In this document: piece after piece, positions 30,188-43,748 of the stretch
How positions within the stretch are numbered: position 1 is the first letter of the stretch
How the letters are laid out: each line of letters begins with the position of its first letter
DNA from: Spirochaetia bacterium
GTDB taxonomy: Bacteria; Spirochaetota; Spirochaetia; CAKZLE01
NCBI GenBank assembly: GCA_963677595.1
Contig: OY782041.1
Coordinates: forward strand, 864,001-928,000
DNA: 64,000 nt
Reading direction: 5' to 3'
Program-made: the position numbers and the translations under genes
Notes under the pieces: model-generated
Database searches by the model: none
Seen by the model: the letters and a program-made list of their open reading frames with translations, nothing else
What the model was told of the DNA's origin: nothing

Positions 30188-31732
30188 TTAGTGTGCTTCA
30201 ACCAGGCCCAGGACTTCAGCCTTGAAATCGGAGAACTCGATCCCGTTCTCCTCACAGAAGTCCCTGAGGATCACGGTCTTCGAGGGGACCTCCAAGCCGA
30301 GAGCCTCCTCGATGGTCTCGAGCGAGACCCCCATATCGATCACGTCAGCGACCGTGCTCTTACCCTTGATGTCAATAACCCCGGCAGCCGTAACGGTCTC
30401 TTCCTCATGCTCTTCTTCAGGCAGGTCCGTGACGGTCGTCCCCGGCAGTTCGAAGACGAAAGCCCCGCTGAGTTCTGCATACTGTGCATCGGTGATCTTC
30501 CCGGCTTCTTTGAGCATAGCAAGCCCCCGGTCAGTGAGGATCGACTCTTCACCGATGGTGAACGGCAGTCCTGCCCACAGGGCTGTCAGGTACCTGATGC
30601 TGTCAGTCCCTATCGCGACATAGAGCTCCTCGACATCCTTGGCCAGCACGGAATCTGCGATCGCGGTATCGTAGCCGTAGGCTTCTGCCAGGAACTCCGC
30701 GGGAATACCGAAGGCTGCCTCGACGTCAGCGAAGCTGTAGGAGCCCCTGATGTCGGCGGGATCGGAAGCTCCGGCGAACTCGCCTTCCGTGATCAGTTTC
30801 GGGATCTTCCCTCCTTCAGTCTGCCACCAGCCGATTGCCATGGTCAGGAAGATGCCTCCGAACATGATCACCAGGAGTACAGGGGCGATGACCTTCCGCG
30901 AGATGGCGAGGGTACTGCCGCTCTTCGGCCCGGTCACGTCCACGGTCTTCACCACGGGACAGGCAGCCTCGGAGGTACACTCCATACAGGAGATGCACTG
31001 GTGGTCACGTACCCGCTCCCCGGTCGAGACGGAGATGCCCATCGGGCAGGCACGGTCGCAGGCTCCGCAGTCGATGCAGGTGGCAGCCTTCCTCCTGACG
31101 GGGAAGATCCTGAACCAGTTCGTCATCCCGATCAAGGCTCCCATGGGGCAGGCATACCGGCAGAACGGCCGGGGGACGATGAGCGATAAGAGTATCACCA
31201 GTCCCAGGGTAACATAGCCGGTGATCGCGACCTCACCGGTCCAGAAGTTGAATAATGCATAGTAGGGGTCATAATCGGCGAAGATGAGGGTAGCTGACTT
31301 GGCGGTCATCACCACGACCCAGATGAGGACCACATACCTGAGGTATCGAAGGACCTGGTCCAGGGTGTTGGGGATGATCTTCCCGTACCGTTTCTTGAAG
31401 AGCTTCTTCCCGAGCTTCCCTATCCAGTCCTGGAAGGTCCCGAAAGGACAGACCCAGCCGCAGAAGAGCGGCCCGAAGAGGACGGCGCTGATTAGGACGA
31501 TCCCGGCAAGCACCAGTGATGATGCATGGATCTTACTGATGAAGGACCCTGCTGCGATCAGGTTATAGAGGGTGACGACCCCGCCGAAGGGGCATATGGC
31601 ATGCAGGGAAGCCCCTGCTATGAACGGGATGGTGATCCCGGACTCTGCCAGCGTATGTGCGACCGCGGTCAGTGCGATCAGTAGAAAGAAGAAGAGTTGG
31701 ATGCCCTTTCTCAAGCGGTTTCTCTTTTTCAT
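30188..31732 (-). CDS. NapH/MauN/YccM-like membrane 4Fe-4S protein with a soluble C-terminal extension
   Basis: CPFG, FCGWVCPFG, FCRYACPMG, CIDCGACDRACP, CISCMECTSEAACP. Confidence 0.85.
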   Translation of the reverse strand: MKKRNRLRKGIQLFFFLLIALTAVAHTLAESGITIPFIAGASLHAICPFGGVVTLYNLIAAGSFISKIHASSLVLAGIVLISAVLFGPLFCGWVCPFGTFQDWIGKLGKKLFKKRYGKIIPNTLDQVLRYLRYVVLIWVVVMTAKSATLIFADYDPYYALFNFWTGEVAITGYVTLGLVILLSLIVPRPFCRYACPMGALIGMTNWFRIFPVRRKAATCIDCGACDRACPMGISVSTGERVRDHQCISCMECTSEAACPVVKTVDVTGPKSGSTLAISRKVIAPVLLVIMFGGIFLTMAIGWWQTEGGKIPKLITEGEFAGASDPADIRGSYSFADVEAAFGIPAEFLAEAYGYDTAIADSVLAKDVEELYVAIGTDSIRYLTALWAGLPFTIGEESILTDRGLAMLKEAGKITDAQYAELSGAFVFELPGTTVTDLPEEEHEEETVTAAGVIDIKGKSTVADVIDMGVSLETIEEALGLEVPSKTVILRDFCEENGIEFSDFKAEVLGLVEAH

Positions 31733-31930
31733 CGTGATTCTCCCCTGTATTACGTAGTGGGGTAAGTATACCACCAAACCAGCATATTCCTCAAATTAAG
31801 TTTTCTCCATCTCACCTTAGCCTGAGGATAACACTGGTATCTGGAGGCGAATTTTCTTGAGGCTCACCGGATACATACAATCGATGAATCGTTGTTTTTT
31901 TCCAACAATTCAATACTGTCTCACTCATCA

Positions 31931-32001: not shown

Positions 32002-33405
32002 ATGTTATCAAGATTCACTGTCGGGAACTTTCTTTCCTTTAAAAGACCGCAAACCTTTTCCATGATCGCCGGTCCCATACAAAAACACAAAGAACGGCTG
32101 TACCAGGCTCAGGACATGAAACTCTTGAAGTTCAGTTCGATCTATGGGGCTAATGCAGCAGGAAAGTCGAATCTCGTGAAGGCTATGAAGTTCGCGAGAG
32201 ATCTCATCGTACAGGGAACAGATAAGGTCCCTGATTCCAGCTGTTTCAAGCTTGATAGGACTTATCAGGATATTCCCTCGTACTTCGAGTTCGAGATCTG
32301 TATCTCCGGACTGATGTACAGCTATGGGTTCGAGATGCTTCTTGCAAAGAAGGAGATAACCGAGGAATGGCTGATCCAACTGGGAGATGGGAAGGACCAG
32401 GAACTATTCTATCGGAATACCGTCACTGGGAAATATGATCTTGATGAGACACTGCTCAGCCGTAACGAAGACATCGGTCGCCTTGGCATCTATATCAGCG
32501 ATCTGAGTGCTGTGAAGGATAGATTCTTCCTCAAGGACATCGTAACGAACAAAGAGACTGCGTACCTGGCGAATCCCAGGCTCAGGATCTTCAAAGAGAT
32601 CTTTCAATGGGTCTCCTCCCTGGATATCTCCTTTCCCAATTCCCCAGTTTCCGGGTATACCTGCTTCTTGGCAACAGCTACTGACCAGATCCTGGAAGCT
32701 GTCAGGACCTTCGCAACCGGCATCAGTCATGTAGAAGCAAGGGAAGTGAAGAAAGAGGCTGTCCTGGAAGATGCCGCCCCTGCTGCCAGAAAGGAGATAT
32801 CCAGGGTATTGGCAGACCTGCCCGGCAGTACAGCCAAGGGAGCGCGTTTCAACTGTAATGGGAAACTCTATCTTGTACACATGAACGGGGATGAGCAGGT
32901 CTTCAATGAGATTACCTTTGCACATGATAATCTCAAGCATATCCCCTTCACGCTGGCAGAGGAGTCAGATGGGACACAACGTCTGTTGGACATGCTGACT
33001 GTTCTTATATGTACGAAAGAGCCTGCGGTATTCATCATAGATGAGATCGACAGGAGCCTGCACCCGCAGATGACTGTCCATTTCGTCAAGAACTTCCTCT
33101 CCTTAGCGGCGAGCAAGGACATACAGCTCATCATCACCACACATGAAAGCCACCTTCTTGATCTCTCGATCCTCAGGCAGGATGAGATCTGGTTTGCTGA
33201 AAAGAACCATGCGGGAGCGACACTCCTGACACCCTTTGACCGGTTCAAGGAGCGATTCGACAAGAAGATCGAAAGGGCTTACCTCGATGGGAGGTACGGC
33301 GGAGTCCCTCTCTTTGATTCTTTCTACTTTCCTACGAGGTATACTCAAGAGGAAGAATCGGAGGACATGGTGGGAGAAGCTTGCAGATGGGGCCAAACCG
33401 AATGA
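32002..33405 (+). CDS. AAA_21 ATPase (RloA/AbiLi-like)
   Basis: NFLSFK, IYGANAAGKSN, ESDGT, IDEIDRSLHP, TTHE, DEIWFAEK, YLDGRYGGVP. Confidence 0.9.
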   Translation: MLSRFTVGNFLSFKRPQTFSMIAGPIQKHKERLYQAQDMKLLKFSSIYGANAAGKSNLVKAMKFARDLIVQGTDKVPDSSCFKLDRTYQDIPSYFEFEICISGLMYSYGFEMLLAKKEITEEWLIQLGDGKDQELFYRNTVTGKYDLDETLLSRNEDIGRLGIYISDLSAVKDRFFLKDIVTNKETAYLANPRLRIFKEIFQWVSSLDISFPNSPVSGYTCFLATATDQILEAVRTFATGISHVEAREVKKEAVLEDAAPAARKEISRVLADLPGSTAKGARFNCNGKLYLVHMNGDEQVFNEITFAHDNLKHIPFTLAEESDGTQRLLDMLTVLICTKEPAVFIIDEIDRSLHPQMTVHFVKNFLSLAASKDIQLIITTHESHLLDLSILRQDEIWFAEKNHAGATLLTPFDRFKERFDKKIERAYLDGRYGGVPLFDSFYFPTRYTQEEESEDMVGEACRWGQTE

Positions 33406-34127
33406 GAATCGAGCAACCGTATGGCTATCGATTCGATCAGGGATTAGGTCCCATCGAGCCGAAATATAAATATTTCATAGCATGTGAGGGGAAAAGAACT
33501 GAGTATGTGTATTTCAAAGGACTGATGAGAGCCAAATCTGAACTCGGTATTGATCCTTTGATAGATGTCATCCCTATACAACATGATTCTCAGACAGGCA
33601 GTCATCCATTGAGTATCCTTGATGAAACACAGGAAGTTCTGTACGACAGTGAACGATACTTCCCTGAAACAGATACTGTTTGTATTATTGTGGACAGGGA
33701 TGCCGGCAGTTTCTTTCCAACACAATATGAAGAAATGGTAGAGCAATCCGCATCATTGGGATTTAGATTGATCGTCTCCAATCCATGTATAGAGCTTTGG
33801 CTGTTGCTTCATTATACAGACCTTTCGAACTACGACCTCCAACAGATCCGTGAAAACAGGAAGAGGGGTAATCGAACGTATACCGAGATCCTGCTTAAAG
33901 ATGACCATCTCCAGGGAAGCTATAATAAACACCGCATTCAGTTCGATAGAAATTTCAAGCCGTATGTCCATAGAGCAATCAAGAACTCCAAGATGCATGC
34001 AACTGCACTAGACCAACTGAAGGTAAACGTCGGTACTAACATCGGGCTGCTCATCGGGGAGATGCTGAAAGAGCCTGCAGATCAAGCCGATACACACTCC
34101 CTAAGCTCCTGCACTCATAAATGCTGA
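33402..34127 (+). CDS. RloB-family (TOPRIM-like, AbiLii-like) protein
   Basis: IACEGKRTEYVYF, VDRD, SNPCIELWLLLH, TNIGLL; ATGA overlap with rloA. Confidence 0.88.
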   Translation: MRIEQPYGYRFDQGLGPIEPKYKYFIACEGKRTEYVYFKGLMRAKSELGIDPLIDVIPIQHDSQTGSHPLSILDETQEVLYDSERYFPETDTVCIIVDRDAGSFFPTQYEEMVEQSASLGFRLIVSNPCIELWLLLHYTDLSNYDLQQIRENRKRGNRTYTEILLKDDHLQGSYNKHRIQFDRNFKPYVHRAIKNSKMHATALDQLKVNVGTNIGLLIGEMLKEPADQADTHSLSSCTHKC

Positions 34128-34240: not shown

Positions 34241-35626
34241 ATGCCGGTATTCGTTAACAGGACCCTCAACATGAAGAAGATCAGGATGATCGGTTTCGAC
34301 ATGGACTATACCCTTGTCGCCTACCATACCGAGATCTTCGAGAAGCAGGTCTATGACCTGGTCATGCAGCGTCTTGCGGAACAGGAGGGGTATCCTGAGG
34401 CAGTCACCACCCTTCCCTTCGAGTTCGACCGCTCTATCGTGGGGCTCGTCATCGACCTGCGCAATGGGTACCTGCTCCAGCTGAGCCGGTACCATAAGGT
34501 GAAGCGCTCCTACTACGGGCTGGATGAGGTCCCGTTCCGGGAGCAGAACGCCATCTACCGTAACATGGCCATCGACCCCCGGGATCCCGACTATGTCAGC
34601 CTCGACACGGCCTTCGCCATCTCGACTGGCGTCATCTTCTCCCAGCTCGTCCAGCTCAAGAAGGAGGGTGCGGACCTCCCCGGCTATGCTGACATACTCT
34701 CCACGGTGGGATCCACGATGGACAGCATCCACCAGGACGGGACCCTCAAGGAGATCCTCAAGGCAGACTTACCCAGGTTCGTCATCAGGGATCCGAAGGT
34801 GGCACGGGTACTGGAACGGTACAAGCGCAACCATAAGCAGCTGATGATCATCACTAATTCCGATTACTCCTATACGAAGGCCCTGTTAGACTATGCCCTC
34901 ACCCCATACCTCAAGGATCACCAGAGCTGGAGGGAACTCTTCGACATCGTGATCACCTACGCCGACAAACCGAGGTTCTTCGAGCGGAACAACCGCTTCC
35001 TTGCCGTCGACCCCGATACCGGCCTGATGACCAACCACGAGGGGCCGATCACCAATGGCATCTACCAGGGCGGCTGCTCGAGCAGGCTCCAGGAGGACCT
35101 GGGGCTGCAGGGCAGCGAGATCCTCTATCTCGGTGACCACATCTACGGGGATGTCGTCTCGATCAAGAAGACCTGCAACTGGCGTACAGCCCTGGTCCTC
35201 GGGGACCTCGACCGGGAGATGGAGGGCGTACGCGCAGCGTACACCACCCAGGCACGGATCGATGAACTCATGGACCAGAAGGCAGTACTGGAGCAGGAGA
35301 TCAACGAGGCTGACATCAAGCGGTATGAATCGCAGGGACGGACCTACACCCCGCTCGACTCCCAGTACCAGCAGATCGACGGGATCAACAACGAGATATC
35401 ACGGCTCATCGGTGCATACTCCACCTTCTTCAACCCCTACTGGGGGGAGATCCTGCGTGCTGGGTCGGAGGAGAGTCGTTATGCTGACCAGGTAGAACGG
35501 TATGCCTGCATCTTCATGACGAAGGTCTCGGACCTTTATGACTATTCACCGAGGTTCTACTTCAGGCCTGGCAAGCGTATCCTGCCCCACGAGCAGGCAG
35601 TCATCGATGAGATGGGAACGGATTAG
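34241..35626 (+). CDS. HAD-IG family 5'-nucleotidase (cN-II-like)
   Basis: GFDMDYTL, ITNS, KPRFF, YLGDHIYGD, WRT, NPYWG, QVERYAC. Confidence 0.92.
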   Translation: MPVFVNRTLNMKKIRMIGFDMDYTLVAYHTEIFEKQVYDLVMQRLAEQEGYPEAVTTLPFEFDRSIVGLVIDLRNGYLLQLSRYHKVKRSYYGLDEVPFREQNAIYRNMAIDPRDPDYVSLDTAFAISTGVIFSQLVQLKKEGADLPGYADILSTVGSTMDSIHQDGTLKEILKADLPRFVIRDPKVARVLERYKRNHKQLMIITNSDYSYTKALLDYALTPYLKDHQSWRELFDIVITYADKPRFFERNNRFLAVDPDTGLMTNHEGPITNGIYQGGCSSRLQEDLGLQGSEILYLGDHIYGDVVSIKKTCNWRTALVLGDLDREMEGVRAAYTTQARIDELMDQKAVLEQEINEADIKRYESQGRTYTPLDSQYQQIDGINNEISRLIGAYSTFFNPYWGEILRAGSEESRYADQVERYACIFMTKVSDLYDYSPRFYFRPGKRILPHEQAVIDEMGTD

Positions 35627-36309
35627 ATTGAATCAGTGACGAAGGGGTGCCTCAGGTACTCGAAGATCGCCGCGACCTTGTCGCTCAGCGAGACGATGAA
35701 GCTCTCTGAGTACTTCGGGAGCTGGCGTGTCTTCGGGAACATATGCTTCACGATGATATCGGCCTCACGGTGTGAGACTTCGAAGTGGAGCCGTGCATTC
35801 TCCAGCGCGATATGGGGATGCTCCTTCCCGTGGGTAAGACGGGAGGCATCAGCCTTCTTCTTCTCCCTCCAGTCATAGAGGAAGAAGTCATGGAGGAGCC
35901 CGCCCCGGGCTGCGGCATGGTAGTCTATGCTGAGCAGCTTGGAGATCGCATACGCGATGAAGGAGACGCGCTGCACATGGTCGTAGATGTGGCCTGAGTG
36001 GTGGTGGTAATCCTGCAGCTTGAGGAACTCCTCATGGTAGAGGATATCACCGACGAGCGAATGGTGCTCCAATCGGGTCGGCCTCAGCTTCGTGAAGGTG
36101 GTATGTTCCGCACGCACGGAGATATAGAAGAGATGCAGTCCGTACAGGAGCGCAGCAAGCGCAGAGATACTGATCATCAGAGATACATGGGATAACAGAA
36201 GGCTGCTGGTCACCGTCACTGACAGCAGGATAAGCACCAGGTAGAACAGGCGTCTTACAGTACGACGATCGAGCCATGAATGTTTCTGGCCGTCAACTCG
36301 TATACACAT
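35623..36309 (-). CDS. HD-domain phosphohydrolase with N-terminal TM segments
   Basis: HHSGHIYDH, GLLHDFFLYDW, HPHIALENA, HMFP, SDK. Start codon uncertain. Confidence 0.8.
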   Translation of the reverse strand: MCIRVDGQKHSWLDRRTVRRLFYLVLILLSVTVTSSLLLSHVSLMISISALAALLYGLHLFYISVRAEHTTFTKLRPTRLEHHSLVGDILYHEEFLKLQDYHHHSGHIYDHVQRVSFIAYAISKLLSIDYHAAARGGLLHDFFLYDWREKKKADASRLTHGKEHPHIALENARLHFEVSHREADIIVKHMFPKTRQLPKYSESFIVSLSDKVAAIFEYLRHPFVTDSI

Positions 36310-36423
36310 TGTTCAGGTAATATACTGGCAAACCGTTGACAAGTCAAGAGATGGACCGGCCATCCGGGAGAGATTCCCTTAGGAACCAGGGTTTGAGAAA
36401 AATCTTTTAGAAACTCAACTTTG

Positions 36424-36465
36424 GTAACCTGCGTTACTTTCACGATCCGCCCCTTCCGTTATATT
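36424..36465 (+). promoter_or_regulatory. GTAAC-N4-GTTAC palindrome at -41.5 plus -10 box (class II Crp/Fnr-type activated promoter)
   Basis: Palindrome 36424-36437 (centre 36430.5), TATATT at 36460-36465, ATG at 36472, no good -35 box. Confidence 0.65.
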
Positions 36466-36471
36466 CTACCT

Positions 36472-37695
36472 ATGATGAAAGCAAAGATAGAGTTGACAGA
36501 TACGTTATATACGATCATAACGACCTACCCGCAGACGCGGGAGGTCTTCGTCGCAAACGGCTTCCCCCAGTTCGCCGATGATGCGCAGCTACAGGGGATG
36601 GGTAAGATGCTGACCTTCAAGGCAGCCATGCTCGCGAAGAAGAAGAACCCCGAGATCTTCCTCTCCCTGCTCGATGAGGTAATCGAGCAGCATGCCATGA
36701 TGGCTGAGGAGGGGGTCCAGGCACCGGCTGTCAGGCAAAGTGCCTGCTCGATCGCGGGGATCCTCCCCTGCCCGGTGAAGATCCCGCTGCTCGACGGGTT
36801 CGGCGAGTTCCTCAAAGGCTATGAAAAGGAACGGGGCAAGACCATCAGCTACCGGCTCAAGTCCGCCTCCGGCGGCCTCGGCTGGCTGGAGGAGGAGATA
36901 CGGGACGCGAAGGGCCCTGAGGACCTTCCTGACCTGGTCATCTCCGCAGGTTTCGAGCTCTTCTTCGACCGAGAACGCTACGGTGCCTTCCGGGATGAGG
37001 GCATGTTCAAGGACCTCTCCTCCTTACCTGAGTTCAACCGCAGTTTCGACGGCCTCGGGCTGAAGGACCCGAAGAAGAACTACTCCATCGTCGGGGCGGT
37101 ACCAGCGATCTTCCTCGTGGACACCCTGGAACTGAAAGGACGTAAGGTCCCAAAGACCTGGGACGACATCCTCTCCGAGGAGTTCGCAGGCTCGATCAGC
37201 CTGCCGGTCGAGGACTTCGACCTCTTCAACGCGGTCTGCCTGACCCTCTACCGGGAACGGGGGATCGAGGCGATCAAAGCCCTGGGACGGAACATGCTCT
37301 CCTCGATGCACCCCGCCCAGATGGTCAAGAACCGGAGGAACGAGGAGAAGCCTGCCGTGACCGTGCTCCCCTGGTTCTTCACCAGGATGATCTTCGGCAA
37401 CACCAGCCTCCAGGTCGTATGGCCCGAGGATGGGTCCATCCTGAGCCCGATCTTCGTCGCGGCGAAGGAGGAGAAAGCCGAGGAGCTCGCACCGGTGGTG
37501 GAGTTCTTCGAGTCAGAGGCAGTGGGAAAGATCTTCATGGAGCGGGGATTCTTCCCGAGCGTGAACCCGCAGGTAGACAACACGATCTCGGCAGACCAGA
37601 AGATGCAGTGGCTCGGCTGGGACTTCATCTACGACCATGACCTCTCTGCACTCATCAGGGAGTGCACGGAGGCATTCGAAGGAGCACAGGCATGA
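36472..37695 (+). CDS. DUF1858-like domain fused to an SBP-fold domain; no signal peptide
   Basis: N-terminus TLYTIITTYPQTREVFVANGF (DUF1858-like); LPCPVK; PKTWDDIL and WPEDG of PotD/AfuA-type SBPs; no hydrophobic leader or lipobox. Confidence 0.78.
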   Translation: MMKAKIELTDTLYTIITTYPQTREVFVANGFPQFADDAQLQGMGKMLTFKAAMLAKKKNPEIFLSLLDEVIEQHAMMAEEGVQAPAVRQSACSIAGILPCPVKIPLLDGFGEFLKGYEKERGKTISYRLKSASGGLGWLEEEIRDAKGPEDLPDLVISAGFELFFDRERYGAFRDEGMFKDLSSLPEFNRSFDGLGLKDPKKNYSIVGAVPAIFLVDTLELKGRKVPKTWDDILSEEFAGSISLPVEDFDLFNAVCLTLYRERGIEAIKALGRNMLSSMHPAQMVKNRRNEEKPAVTVLPWFFTRMIFGNTSLQVVWPEDGSILSPIFVAAKEEKAEELAPVVEFFESEAVGKIFMERGFFPSVNPQVDNTISADQKMQWLGWDFIYDHDLSALIRECTEAFEGAQA

Positions 37696-38396
37696 ACCTG
37701 GTAACCGTATCGGGCCCTCCGTCATCGGGGAAGACCTCGGTCATCCTCAAGACGCTGGCCTCCCTGAAGGACCGCTCGCTCAAGCCGGCAGTCGTCAAGT
37801 TCGACTGCCTCTATACCGATGATGACCAGCTCTACGAAAGAGCCGGCATCCCGGTGCGCAAGGGGCTCTCCGGCTCTCTCTGCCCCGACCATTACTTCGT
37901 CTCGAACATCGAGGCCGTGGTGGACTGGGGCGTGGAATCTGAGTTCGACCTCCTGATCAGCGAGTCGGCAGGCCTCTGCAACCGGTGCTCACCCTACATC
38001 AAGGGGATCAAGGCGGTCTGCGTCATCGACAACCTGAGCGGGATCAACACCCCGAAGAAGATCGGCCCGATGCTCAAGACTGCCGACATCATCGTCATCA
38101 CCAAGGGGGACATCGTCTCCCAGGCTGAGCGAGAGGTCTTCGCCTCCCGGGTCCAGGCAGTCAACCCGAGGGCCGTCATCCTGAACGTCAACGGGCTCAC
38201 CGGCCAGGGCTGTTATGAGCTGAGCACCCTGCTGCTCGATGAGGATATGCAGATCACCTCCCTCAAGGGGAAGGAGCTGCGCTTCAGCATGCCATCAGCA
38301 CTCTGTTCCTACTGTCTCGGTGAGAAACGGATCGGCGAGAGCTACCAGATGGGCAACGTGAGGAAGATGGATATGGAAGGGGGGAAGCGGTCATGA
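37692..38396 (+). CDS. HypB/UreG/CobW-like (G3E) GTPase, Cys-rich
   Basis: GPPSSGKT, LCPDH, ESAGLCNRCSPY, ITKGD, C-terminal CSYC; ATGA overlap with the upstream gene. Confidence 0.85.
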   Translation: MNLVTVSGPPSSGKTSVILKTLASLKDRSLKPAVVKFDCLYTDDDQLYERAGIPVRKGLSGSLCPDHYFVSNIEAVVDWGVESEFDLLISESAGLCNRCSPYIKGIKAVCVIDNLSGINTPKKIGPMLKTADIIVITKGDIVSQAEREVFASRVQAVNPRAVILNVNGLTGQGCYELSTLLLDEDMQITSLKGKELRFSMPSALCSYCLGEKRIGESYQMGNVRKMDMEGGKRS

Positions 38397-39397
38397 TCTA
38401 CGAACCACTCAAGACCCTGCTCGAAGCGCACCCCTACATAGACAGCTTCCTTCAGGACAACCATATACCAATCGAGGGGAATGAGGAGAGGAATGTCAGG
38501 GAGATCATCGAGAGCCTCCCGGAAGAGACCATCGAGGAGTTCGCCTACGACATCGACGCCATCGAGCAGAATCTCGTCCTCTTCATCACCCAGATGCAGG
38601 AGTTCCTCCAGGATGATGAGCAGGCAGTCACCTCGATCACCATCTTCCCCGGGACTGACAAGAGCGGAACCCCGGAGGGGTTCGAGCGCCTCGAGCTCAT
38701 CCCGGGACAGATCATCTCCATCGTGGGACCGACCGGGTCCGGCAAGAGCCGGCTCCTCGCAGACATCGAGTGGGTCGCACAGGCAGACACCCCGACCAAC
38801 CGCACAGTCTACGTGAACGGGGAGATCCCCGAATCCAAGTGGCGCTTCTCGATCTCGGACAAGCTCGTCGCACAGCTCTCGCAGAATATGAACTTCGTCA
38901 TGGACCTGAGTGTCGAGGAGTTCGTCAGGATGCATGCGGAGAGCCGCATGCTCGAGCATATAGACACGGTCGTCGACGGGATCATCGCGAAGGCTAACGA
39001 CCTCGCAGGCGAGCAGTTCACCCCCGACACACCGATCACCTCCCTGAGCGGCGGGCAGAGCCGGGCCCTGATGATCGCCGATACGGCGGTCCTCTCACGC
39101 TCCCCGGTCATCCTCATCGATGAGATCGAGAATGCGGGGATCGACCGGAAGCGGGCACTCGAGCTGCTCCTTTCCGAAGACAAGATCGTCCTCATGGCGA
39201 CCCACGACCCCGTCCTCGCACTGCTCGGGGACAAGCGGCTCGTCATCAGGAACGGCGGGATAGAGAAGGTCATCGAGACCACCGAGGAGGAGAGGTCGAT
39301 CCTCTCCGAACTCGAGGAGCTCGATGAACGGGTACAGACATTACGGAATCTCCTCAGGGCAGGAGAACTGTTACATGAGAACAAGAGGAGTAATTAA
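38393..39397 (+). CDS. ABC-type ATPase with an N-terminal DUF1858-like extension; no cognate permease
   Basis: GPTGSGKS, LSGGQ, ILIDEIE, ATHD; ~75-aa N-terminal helical domain (TLLEAHPYIDSFL). Confidence 0.85.
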   Translation: MIYEPLKTLLEAHPYIDSFLQDNHIPIEGNEERNVREIIESLPEETIEEFAYDIDAIEQNLVLFITQMQEFLQDDEQAVTSITIFPGTDKSGTPEGFERLELIPGQIISIVGPTGSGKSRLLADIEWVAQADTPTNRTVYVNGEIPESKWRFSISDKLVAQLSQNMNFVMDLSVEEFVRMHAESRMLEHIDTVVDGIIAKANDLAGEQFTPDTPITSLSGGQSRALMIADTAVLSRSPVILIDEIENAGIDRKRALELLLSEDKIVLMATHDPVLALLGDKRLVIRNGGIEKVIETTEEERSILSELEELDERVQTLRNLLRAGELLHENKRSN

Positions 39398-39398
39398 T

Positions 39399-39638
39399 AT
39401 GCACGAAGGATGTTCAGCACAGTTTACAGGCGGGTCTGAAGTAGTGGACAAATTGAGGATGATGGGATTCTCGCAGGAGAGCCTCCCCTCCCCGTTCGTC
39501 ATCGAATGTGAGCATTGCGGCACGTCGTTCATCATGAGGACGTTCGAGGCTTCCTGCCACTGCGGCATGGTCTACGGGGTGACCCCCTGCCATGCATCTG
39601 CAGCAGAGAACGTGAAGGCTGCAGGCGTAGGCTACTGA
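39399..39638 (+). CDS. Small Cys/His-rich putative metal-binding protein (79 aa)
   Basis: MHEGC...CEHC...CHCG...TPCH; GAGGAG RBS; starts 1 nt after the ATPase stop. Confidence 0.75.
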   Translation: MHEGCSAQFTGGSEVVDKLRMMGFSQESLPSPFVIECEHCGTSFIMRTFEASCHCGMVYGVTPCHASAAENVKAAGVGY

Positions 39639-42297: not shown

Positions 42298-42522
42298 TCA
42301 CATAATAGATAAGGTATTTTGCCCCAATCCCTCGATTTCTATATCCACAGTATCCCTTGGTAGATGTTTCTTGAATGATTCGAAGTAATTCGGTTCTGTC
42401 TTTGTTCCTTCACAGAGAATCAAGAAATATTCCCTATACTTCTTGAAACCAGTTCTTCTTGTTCTGGATTGCTTCACATATTTATGTTGTGTTTCTTTAT
42501 TGAACGTGTGGCTTCTACTCAT
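42298..42522 (-). pseudogene. Truncated RloB-family gene (N-terminal 74 aa only)
   Basis: FLILCEGTKTEPNYF motif present, then a stop; no DxD or SNPCxE motifs and no room for them before the cupin promoter region. Confidence 0.8.
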
Positions 42523-43748
42523 TCAACTCCCCAAACCTTCCGAAAATCCCCGATGAATGGGATCGCCCCATACCGTCCTTGAATATAATCATTCTCAAAA
42601 GAAGCATCATTACGTACCTTCTGCCCTTTTGGCATGATATAGTCGCTTAGTGAATACAAGTCAGTATCCTCAGAAGGGGTCTTTTCTGTGAACCATATCT
42701 GATCACGTCGAAAGACTTTCGTACGGAGCAGATTGGTATCATGAGTCGCAAAAATGAATTGTGCCTTATGTTGATTAGTCAAGCTGGAGTTGAACAATCT
42801 CACGATGGCAGTGGTAAGCTTTGGATGTAGTCTTGCATCTAATTCATCAACAACAAGCACCTTCCCATCCAGTAACGCAGCAAGTACCGGGCCCATCAGC
42901 CGAAAGAATTTTTTACTCCCTTCCGATTCCTGTGATTCAAAATCCAAATCTGTGCTGCCAACAATTCTGTTCTTTTCATCATATAGATTATGATAGGTCG
43001 AAATACGGGAGTTCTCCTTGCCCATCTCATGTTGGATATCAACATTCTTGATCCCCAGGTCAGCGATCTTCAACAGTTCGATTATTCTTTCTTTGTGCTC
43101 AGGAGACTGCAGCATCATCTTTTCAGTAAACTGCTGATAAACCCTATCCTCGATACCAGAAATGATAGTGAGATCATGGAACCAGTTAATGATTTTCCCG
43201 CTGATCTCTCCATTCAGTTGAGCACAGACTGAAAGGAATAATGCGTTGTTCCTTGTTCTTCCCTCTAATCCACTTCCTTCTGGAAAGAGTTTACTGAACA
43301 CCTGGATGTTCTCACCTTCCCTGATGAATAATGGATACTCTTTGATCTTACGACTGCTCAGTAACCACTCTGCTTGTATCGCAGAATCATCAGCTTCAAA
43401 TCCATATCGGTATTTTACCTGCCCGATCAGGAATGTGATCTCAAACTTAGATGGTTGGTGCAGGGTCTCCGTACTCAACCTGAAACAATCGATATGCAAT
43501 GGTTCGCCAAGTTGTACATCTTTTGACGAATTGAGAACTACCCATTTCATCTTCCCCAAAGCTTCAAGCAGATTCGATTTCCCACTCGCATTCGCCCCAT
43601 ACAGAACAGCACTCTTCAGGACCTGGTACCTGCCTGTGTCAATGATATTCTCTTCCCAATACTCCTTGATTGGGTTTGCAGCAATAAGATCAAGGGTCTT
43701 CTCATCCTTGAAGGATTTAAAATTACTACAGGTGAAATTGATTAACAT
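42519..43748 (-). CDS. AAA_21 ATPase (RloA/AbiLi-like), copy 2
   Basis: NFKSFK, YGANASGKSN, ESEGS, VDELDARLHP, ATHD, DQIWFTEK, YIQGRYGAIP; AT-rich. Confidence 0.9.
   Translation of the reverse strand: MLINFTCSNFKSFKDEKTLDLIAANPIKEYWEENIIDTGRYQVLKSAVLYGANASGKSNLLEALGKMKWVVLNSSKDVQLGEPLHIDCFRLSTETLHQPSKFEITFLIGQVKYRYGFEADDSAIQAEWLLSSRKIKEYPLFIREGENIQVFSKLFPEGSGLEGRTRNNALFLSVCAQLNGEISGKIINWFHDLTIISGIEDRVYQQFTEKMMLQSPEHKERIIELLKIADLGIKNVDIQHEMGKENSRISTYHNLYDEKNRIVGSTDLDFESQESEGSKKFFRLMGPVLAALLDGKVLVVDELDARLHPKLTTAIVRLFNSSLTNQHKAQFIFATHDTNLLRTKVFRRDQIWFTEKTPSEDTDLYSLSDYIMPKGQKVRNDASFENDYIQGRYGAIPFIGDFRKVWGVE

Follow-up and report, generated by a model that had tools for sequence, protein, structure and literature searches.

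A GTAAC-N4-GTTAC palindrome in front of a four-gene operon probably marks an ordinary class II sigma-70 promoter, activated by an HcpR2-type Crp/Fnr protein and giving a leaderless mRNA, so that the operon is switched on with hcp under nitrosative stress. We assign this reading a probability of about 0.78. It is the most likely explanation because the same site precedes hcp and a hemerythrin-domain gene, the 22-nt spacing to the -10 element is conserved, and the genome encodes a regulator with the Arg-Pro recognition residues. In the proposed mechanism, an HcpR2 dimer responding to NO or nitrite would bind the palindrome, cover the weak -35 region, and contact and recruit RNA polymerase from the class II position. 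Transcription would then begin with the A of the ATG at 36472 or an adjacent base, producing leaderless mRNA, and the four-gene operon would be turned on together with hcp. Neither the motif nor the class II position is new, and leaderless genes are known as well. What is newer is the membrane-free four-gene operon as a target; the promoter itself is of an ordinary type, and its value lies in pointing to that operon.

All positions refer to the window, the whole 64,000-nt stretch analysed here, unless a contig is named. The palindrome, which is the predicted HcpR2 binding site, reads GTAACCTGCGTTAC at 36424-36437. The -10 element TATATT (36460-36465, + strand) lies 22 nt 3' of the palindrome end, and the ATG at 36472-36474 (+ strand), which is both start codon and predicted leaderless transcription start, follows 6 nt 3' of the -10. 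Each element is present where the first-pass annotation had placed it, and the palindrome center, recomputed with the A of ATG 36472 as +1, falls at -41.5 as that annotation had calculated. It had also described a start lacking a Shine-Dalgarno sequence and a good -35 box. Indeed, no Shine-Dalgarno word was found 5' of ATG 36472, and the -35 position, 17 nt before the -10, reads CTTTCA, only a 3/6 match to TTGACA. The palindrome overlaps this -35 position by one base, and a consensus promoter scan yielded no + strand promoter at the site. The site combines 22 nt to the -10 with a weak -35, as in a class II promoter, and it has the features used for leaderless genes in PMC3160421, namely no Shine-Dalgarno sequence and a TAnnnT located roughly 12 nt upstream of the start codon. 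The earlier statement that -41.5 is the class II activating position agrees with PMC3688515, where FNR is described as usually activating from this position. The window promoter resembles E. coli class II FNR/CRP promoters in its -41.5 center and overlapping weak -35 (PMC3688515), while differing from them in half-site, in regulator branch and in a predicted transcription start that coincides with the start codon.

The window contains a single exact copy of the motif, and 0 of 100 shuffles produced one, while a match with one mismatch allowed appeared in 37 of 100 shuffles. The GTAAC-type HcpR motif named in the first-pass annotation proved to be correct: GTAACnnnnGTTAC is the predicted HcpR2 consensus of Rodionov et al. 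2005 (PMC1274295), and the window site matches it exactly. In that study the HcpR2 branch comprises clostridia, Bacteroides, Thermotogales and a treponeme, and the site is linked to a Pro replacing Glu181 in the recognition helix. The system described here shares with the HcpR2 regulon the identical consensus, the Pro at 181, an hcp target and hemerythrin-like additional targets. It differs in that hcp is the only target listed in the paper for Treponema denticola, and in that the regulator gene here is unlinked to hcp. Sites in PMC1274295 are positioned from the start codon, and the excerpt contains no class II or leaderless geometry. Within its Table S1, with CAC0362, CTC00439 and a Desulfuromonas 'ABC transporter ATPase component' set aside, we recognized the operon in no row.

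We then asked how the motif is distributed in the window's genome (G000, 4.33 Mb, 54.6% GC). The bare palindrome occurs in 4 exact copies, whereas 60 permuted half-site palindromes averaged 5.1, and a reversed-pattern control equaled or exceeded the motif count in 12 of 14 genomes. The bare palindrome is therefore not over-represented genome-wide. Raw palindrome counts, for which a product estimate gave 0.43 expected versus 4 seen, were discarded as evidence because the permuted and reversed controls show no enrichment. When a TAnnnT at offset 22 was required in addition, 3 of 8 oriented sites qualified, versus 9 of 602 in the permuted controls. The above-chance signal is the palindrome combined with a -10 element spaced by 22 nt.

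All four exact sites in the genome are intergenic, and three of them carry TAnnnT at offset 22: those before the four-gene operon, before hcp and before a DUF438-hemerythrin-PAS gene. A genome scan had been proposed with the expectation of hits upstream of genes such as hcp or hemerythrin genes, and the other copies do precede hcp and a hemerythrin-domain gene. The hcp site (C1:1218240) lies 98 nt before a gene with a Prismane match in Pfam and has its -10 at offset 22, and the hemerythrin-domain gene is preceded by the exact site at C1:1661298. The latter is also upstream of a divergent, leaderless-looking nitroreductase gene, a pair found again in G001. A one-mismatch site at C1:1647445, with a -10 at offset 23, precedes a gene for a 119-aa product that we labeled cupin-like from reading its sequence. 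The distance from this gene to the second Crp/Fnr gene is about 1 kb, and in many Cloacimonadota records the operon begins with a similar cupin gene. At the fourth exact site, C1:2681457, a -10 is absent from both offset 22 and offset 23. This site is the top-scoring palindrome, located 31 nt before an ATPase_2/DUF234 (archaeal-type ATPase) gene with a TATAAT directly after it on the other strand, and may be a chance or a repressive site. A weight-matrix scan of this genome revealed no convincing target other than the five sites above, only the weak candidates C1:3197780 and C1:708080. Immediately upstream of the hcp site, a small conserved gene (C1:1217873-1218223) without a Pfam hit was also found in G003. 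Separately, about 6.2 kb of C1 (5693-11881) is identical to the last 6.2 kb of the contig, probably an untrimmed circular assembly overlap.

A clear orthologue of the first operon gene was found in 13 of 61 genomes searched, the window's genome included; seven weak matches with E above 1e-6 (L026-L032) were dropped as non-orthologues. Loss of the motif upstream of orthologous operons had been named as grounds for abandoning the proposal. Instead, the motif is conserved there: the five closest (L014-L018) of the 12 orthologous loci carry it without mismatch, centered at -41.5 or -42.5 relative to the ATG. Two further loci of the 12 have a one-mismatch site followed by a leader, two have an exact site about 600 nt upstream, before an Rrf2-like gene, and three have no site before the first gene. 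In total, 10 of the 12 loci have a site at the operon or close to it. In G038 (L148, 5505-9968), the first gene stands back to back with hcpR, with hcp beside it and no site before the first gene; an exact site with TATATT at offset 22 and an ATG 6 nt later precedes the GTPase gene. Judging from this sequence, control of the operon may be split in G038, with the internal site driving a leaderless-looking GTPase gene.

This conservation bears on the idea that the palindrome arose by chance, belongs to a coding frame or serves the divergent HD-domain gene, which we consider to have a negligible probability. About five such palindromes are expected per genome by chance, and the ORF list opens the 36472 frame at TTG 36421, upstream of the palindrome. 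However, the palindrome is exact in the five close orthologues while its flanks have diverged and the upstream frames close at different stops, so that conservation largely refutes both a chance and a coding origin. The divergent gene (35623-36347, - strand), whose product has a hydrophobic N-terminal stretch, possesses its own near-consensus promoter, TTGACT-17-TATATT, and no -10 element is present at offset 22 on that strand.

Across operon promoters the distance from site to -10 is fixed while the distance from site to ATG varies. TAnnnT was found at offset 22 in 15 and at offset 23 in 3 of 22 operon sites, including the window's own locus, compared with 2 (offset 22) and 3 (offset 23) in the opposite-strand control. 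For hcp, 121 genomes of the class gave 67 matches, of which we took the best 30, the window's genome among them. A site with at most one mismatch was present at 29 of these 30 loci, and its -10 lies at offset 22 in 21/29 and at offset 23 in 4/29. Because the genomes are in part kin, both the hcp and the operon counts overstate the number of independent events. Named records with the arrangement come from four phyla, including Spirochaetota, Bacillota, Aminicenantes and Labilibaculum. A literature search with partial coverage found no description of HcpR2 promoter geometry or of the 22-nt spacing. This spacing, present at most hcp promoters of the class, supplies a precise geometry that can be tested, for a motif that we encountered in print solely as a prediction.

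A fixed spacing is not what a repressor would need. A regulator that covers the -35 region and leaves it under stress would fit the one-base overlap of the site with the -35 position, and a repressor model has been proposed for an Fe-S protein named HcpR2 in Desulfovibrio desulfuricans (PMC5701242). Yet the 22- or 23-nt distance is kept at 25/29 hcp sites and 18/22 operon sites, the poor -35 would leave little basal activity to repress, and the regulator encoded here has one Cys. Additionally, HcpR activates hcp in C. difficile, where hcp expression is lowered on loss of hcpR (PMC12915319). We regard repression as highly unlikely, and read the fixed spacing as that of class II activation.

The predicted start at the ATG itself was examined across the genome. 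Using crude first-ATG starts for 2,491 long ORFs, TAnnnT peaks 6 nt before the ATG, with 113 occurrences compared with 21-52 at gaps 1-5 and 7-10; the count is 85 at gap 0 and 30-71 further upstream. Counting chance matches, about 195 of these ORFs carry a TAnnnT whose distance to the first ATG is 5-7 nt. Only 11 of the 195 carry a Shine-Dalgarno word, versus 1,324 of the 2,296 others, a comparison affected by competition between the two features for the same bases. A class of leaderless genes can be seen in the genome of this spirochaete. Similarly, 8 of 9 operon promoters with the site at -41.5 or -42.5 lack a Shine-Dalgarno word, while such a word is present in 14 of the 15 operon promoters whose leaders are longer.

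The site and class II activation could be real even if the mRNA is not truly leaderless or begins from a different pair of elements. TATTCT at 36462-36467, which overlaps TATATT and lies at offset 24 from the palindrome, could be paired with a second in-frame ATG at 36475, and in three close promoters the offset-22 position is followed by the ATG after 7 nt, or the -10 lies at offset 23. However, the single ATG of the close orthologues is in register with 36472, evidence against a start at 36475, and the genome-wide TAnnnT peak 6 nt before the ATG matches the TATATT and ATG 36472 pair. We give such a different start only a very slight probability, and retain the predicted leaderless start at 36472.

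The activator had been proposed to be a Crp/Fnr protein encoded elsewhere, and a fitting Arg-Pro protein is found about 1.8 Mb away from the operon. The genome encodes two Crp/Fnr proteins, one with Arg-Pro and the other with Arg-Glu recognition residues. The candidate regulator (G000:C1:2705952-2706635), linked neither to hcp nor to the operon, has the helix ARPSLSR, giving Arg180-Pro181-Arg185 in CRP numbering. It contains a single Cys and no FNR cysteine motif, and therefore cannot hold an FNR-type cluster. Its best solved relatives are 1o5l (E 3.5e-26) and then 9DAY, the HcpR of P. gingivalis (E 2.3e-23), both well ahead of CRP and DNR. In a tree of only the 37 Crp/Fnr proteins fetched here, built without the 2005 reference proteins, it falls within a 96/95 clade of 12 Arg-Pro proteins, 5 of which adjoin hcp. 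Although P. gingivalis HcpR is its second-best solved relative, that protein has Arg-Gln in place of Arg-Pro, and its motif is GTCGC-N4-GCGAC (Table S1, PMC1274295) rather than GTAAC-N4-GTTAC. P. gingivalis HcpR activates hcp in response to NO, with Met68 assigned as a heme ligand (PMC12750200). Met68 aligns with Phe64 of the candidate regulator, so the heme ligand is not kept and the sensing chemistry may differ. A His follows at position 65, which is not kept in G004.

It is thus worth considering that the same site and regulator act by class II activation in response to a signal other than NO or nitrite, such as general redox, sulfur or metal status. The replacement of Met68 by Phe, the single Cys without an FNR-type cluster, the metal-related look of the operon products and the Rrf2-like gene heading the operon in other lineages would each be compatible with another signal. 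In contrast, the co-targets are hcp and a hemerythrin-domain gene, and the NO response is kept in the HcpR of C. difficile, a distant member (PMC12915319). Furthermore, hcp lies within the operon locus in 25 of 80 records (the best 80 of 554), many of them kin and from one phylum. A different signal is unlikely, and we continue to favor NO or nitrite.

To define how far the link extends, we took the best 80 of 554 operon loci from the species collection as a distant set. Five of the 80 were left out of scoring since the gene start was missing, leaving 75. A GTAAC-type site with at most two mismatches stands at class II spacing in 16 of these and a TGTTG-N6-CAACA-type site in 5, while 54 have neither Crp-type site at class II spacing, a few of them for missing upstream DNA. 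Many distant copies are headed by an Rrf2-like or a cupin gene. Five site-less genomes were searched for the regulator: three gave no match, one gave distant matches only, and one (G136, identical to G034) has it. G034 thus combines an Arg-Pro regulator with a leaderless-looking operon, yet has no site. In two of the three site-less genomes without a regulator match, hcp directly follows the operon.

In five genomes the operon carries a variant motif. The same variant is found at hcp in three of them (G130, and G127 and G131, which are kin), while the hcp motif differs in G129 and is absent in G128. G129 encodes two Arg-Pro regulators and has a GTAAC site at hcp, a hint of a split regulon. At L090, L100, L107 and L109, the operon lies next to a Crp/Fnr gene and is preceded, at class II spacing, by a GTATC-N4-GATAC variant.

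The operon consists of four + strand genes whose ends overlap or nearly touch. The first (36472-37695) encodes a 407-aa protein with DUF1858 and SBP_bac_6 matches in Pfam and no hydrophobic N-terminus, and is predicted to be cytoplasmic. The second (37692-38396) encodes a 234-aa CobW/HypB/UreG-type GTPase (Pfam cobW) with six Cys that are invariant in the alignment. The third (38393-39397) encodes a 334-aa ABC-type ATPase (Pfam ABC_tran) without a transmembrane-like stretch, and the fourth (39399-39638) a 79-aa Cys/His-rich protein with no Pfam hit that contains MH[D/E]GC, two Cys pairs and PCH. In this small protein H2, C5, C37, C40, C53, C55 and C64 are invariant. Among 86 loci selected on the GTPase, the four genes are present, in operon order, in 84, 86, 85 and 71. 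None of the four proteins has a signal-peptide-like or membrane stretch (the highest 19-residue Kyte-Doolittle mean was 1.33), and the operon contains no permease gene. Thus it lacks the exported binding protein and the permease that define an ABC importer.

Comparison with known proteins gave partial resemblances. The model of the first protein resembles ferric-ion (FbpA) and PLP (P5PA-type) binding proteins at a TM of about 0.5 and 10-16% identity, a model-based likeness that does not name its ligand, and a search against sequences of solved structures gave one weak match, 6wce. HypB and UreG are metallochaperone GTPases. The operon GTPase is like them in its CobW/HypB/UreG nucleotide-binding domain, its conserved Cys/His motifs and its small Cys-rich neighbor. 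However, it fails the HypB family cut-off, scoring 52 bits against 121, and is also far below that of UreG, and its partners are an ABC ATPase and a protein with a binding-protein fold. No HypA match was found for the 79-aa protein. Its model has a pLDDT of 90, and a wide fold search returned a single row (Z 2.1, rmsd 3.6, 38 aligned), a weak result that shows neither novelty nor absence of a relation to HypA.

From the parts of these proteins and the co-regulation with hcp we infer, less firmly than for the promoter, that the operon products form a cytoplasmic, nucleotide-driven system supplying or repairing metal centers. Somewhat short of even odds, in our estimate, is the more specific proposal that this membrane-free operon under an HcpR2 box is an accessory arm of anaerobic NO defense. 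Its products might then act as a GTP- and ATP-driven cytoplasmic builder or repairer of the metal cluster of Hcp or of other damaged enzymes, kept in step with hcp by the same operator, by a co-changing operator or by placement in one operon. Should the operon indeed serve to mature or repair Hcp or other metal enzymes, it would supply a missing piece in the account of NO survival by strict anaerobes. A literature search, with most subscription papers and RegPrecise outside its scope, found no paper that names the operon as an HcpR target, and the excerpts of PMC4585668 and bioRxiv 10.64898/2026.07.09.736866 contain nothing on it. The site draws attention to an unstudied, highly conserved four-gene operon tied to the nitrosative-stress response of anaerobes.

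Other genes in the window were noted in passing. A gene for a 529-aa membrane 4Fe-4S (Fer4_5) protein (30188-31777, - strand) lies about 4.6 kb upstream of the operon, in palindrome-free surroundings. Lastly, two AAA_21 (AbiEii-type) ATPase genes are present at 32002-34127 (+ strand) and 42298-43748 (- strand). The first is followed by an RloB-like gene and the second by a short, similar-looking frame, and both are probable defense or toxin-antitoxin pairs.
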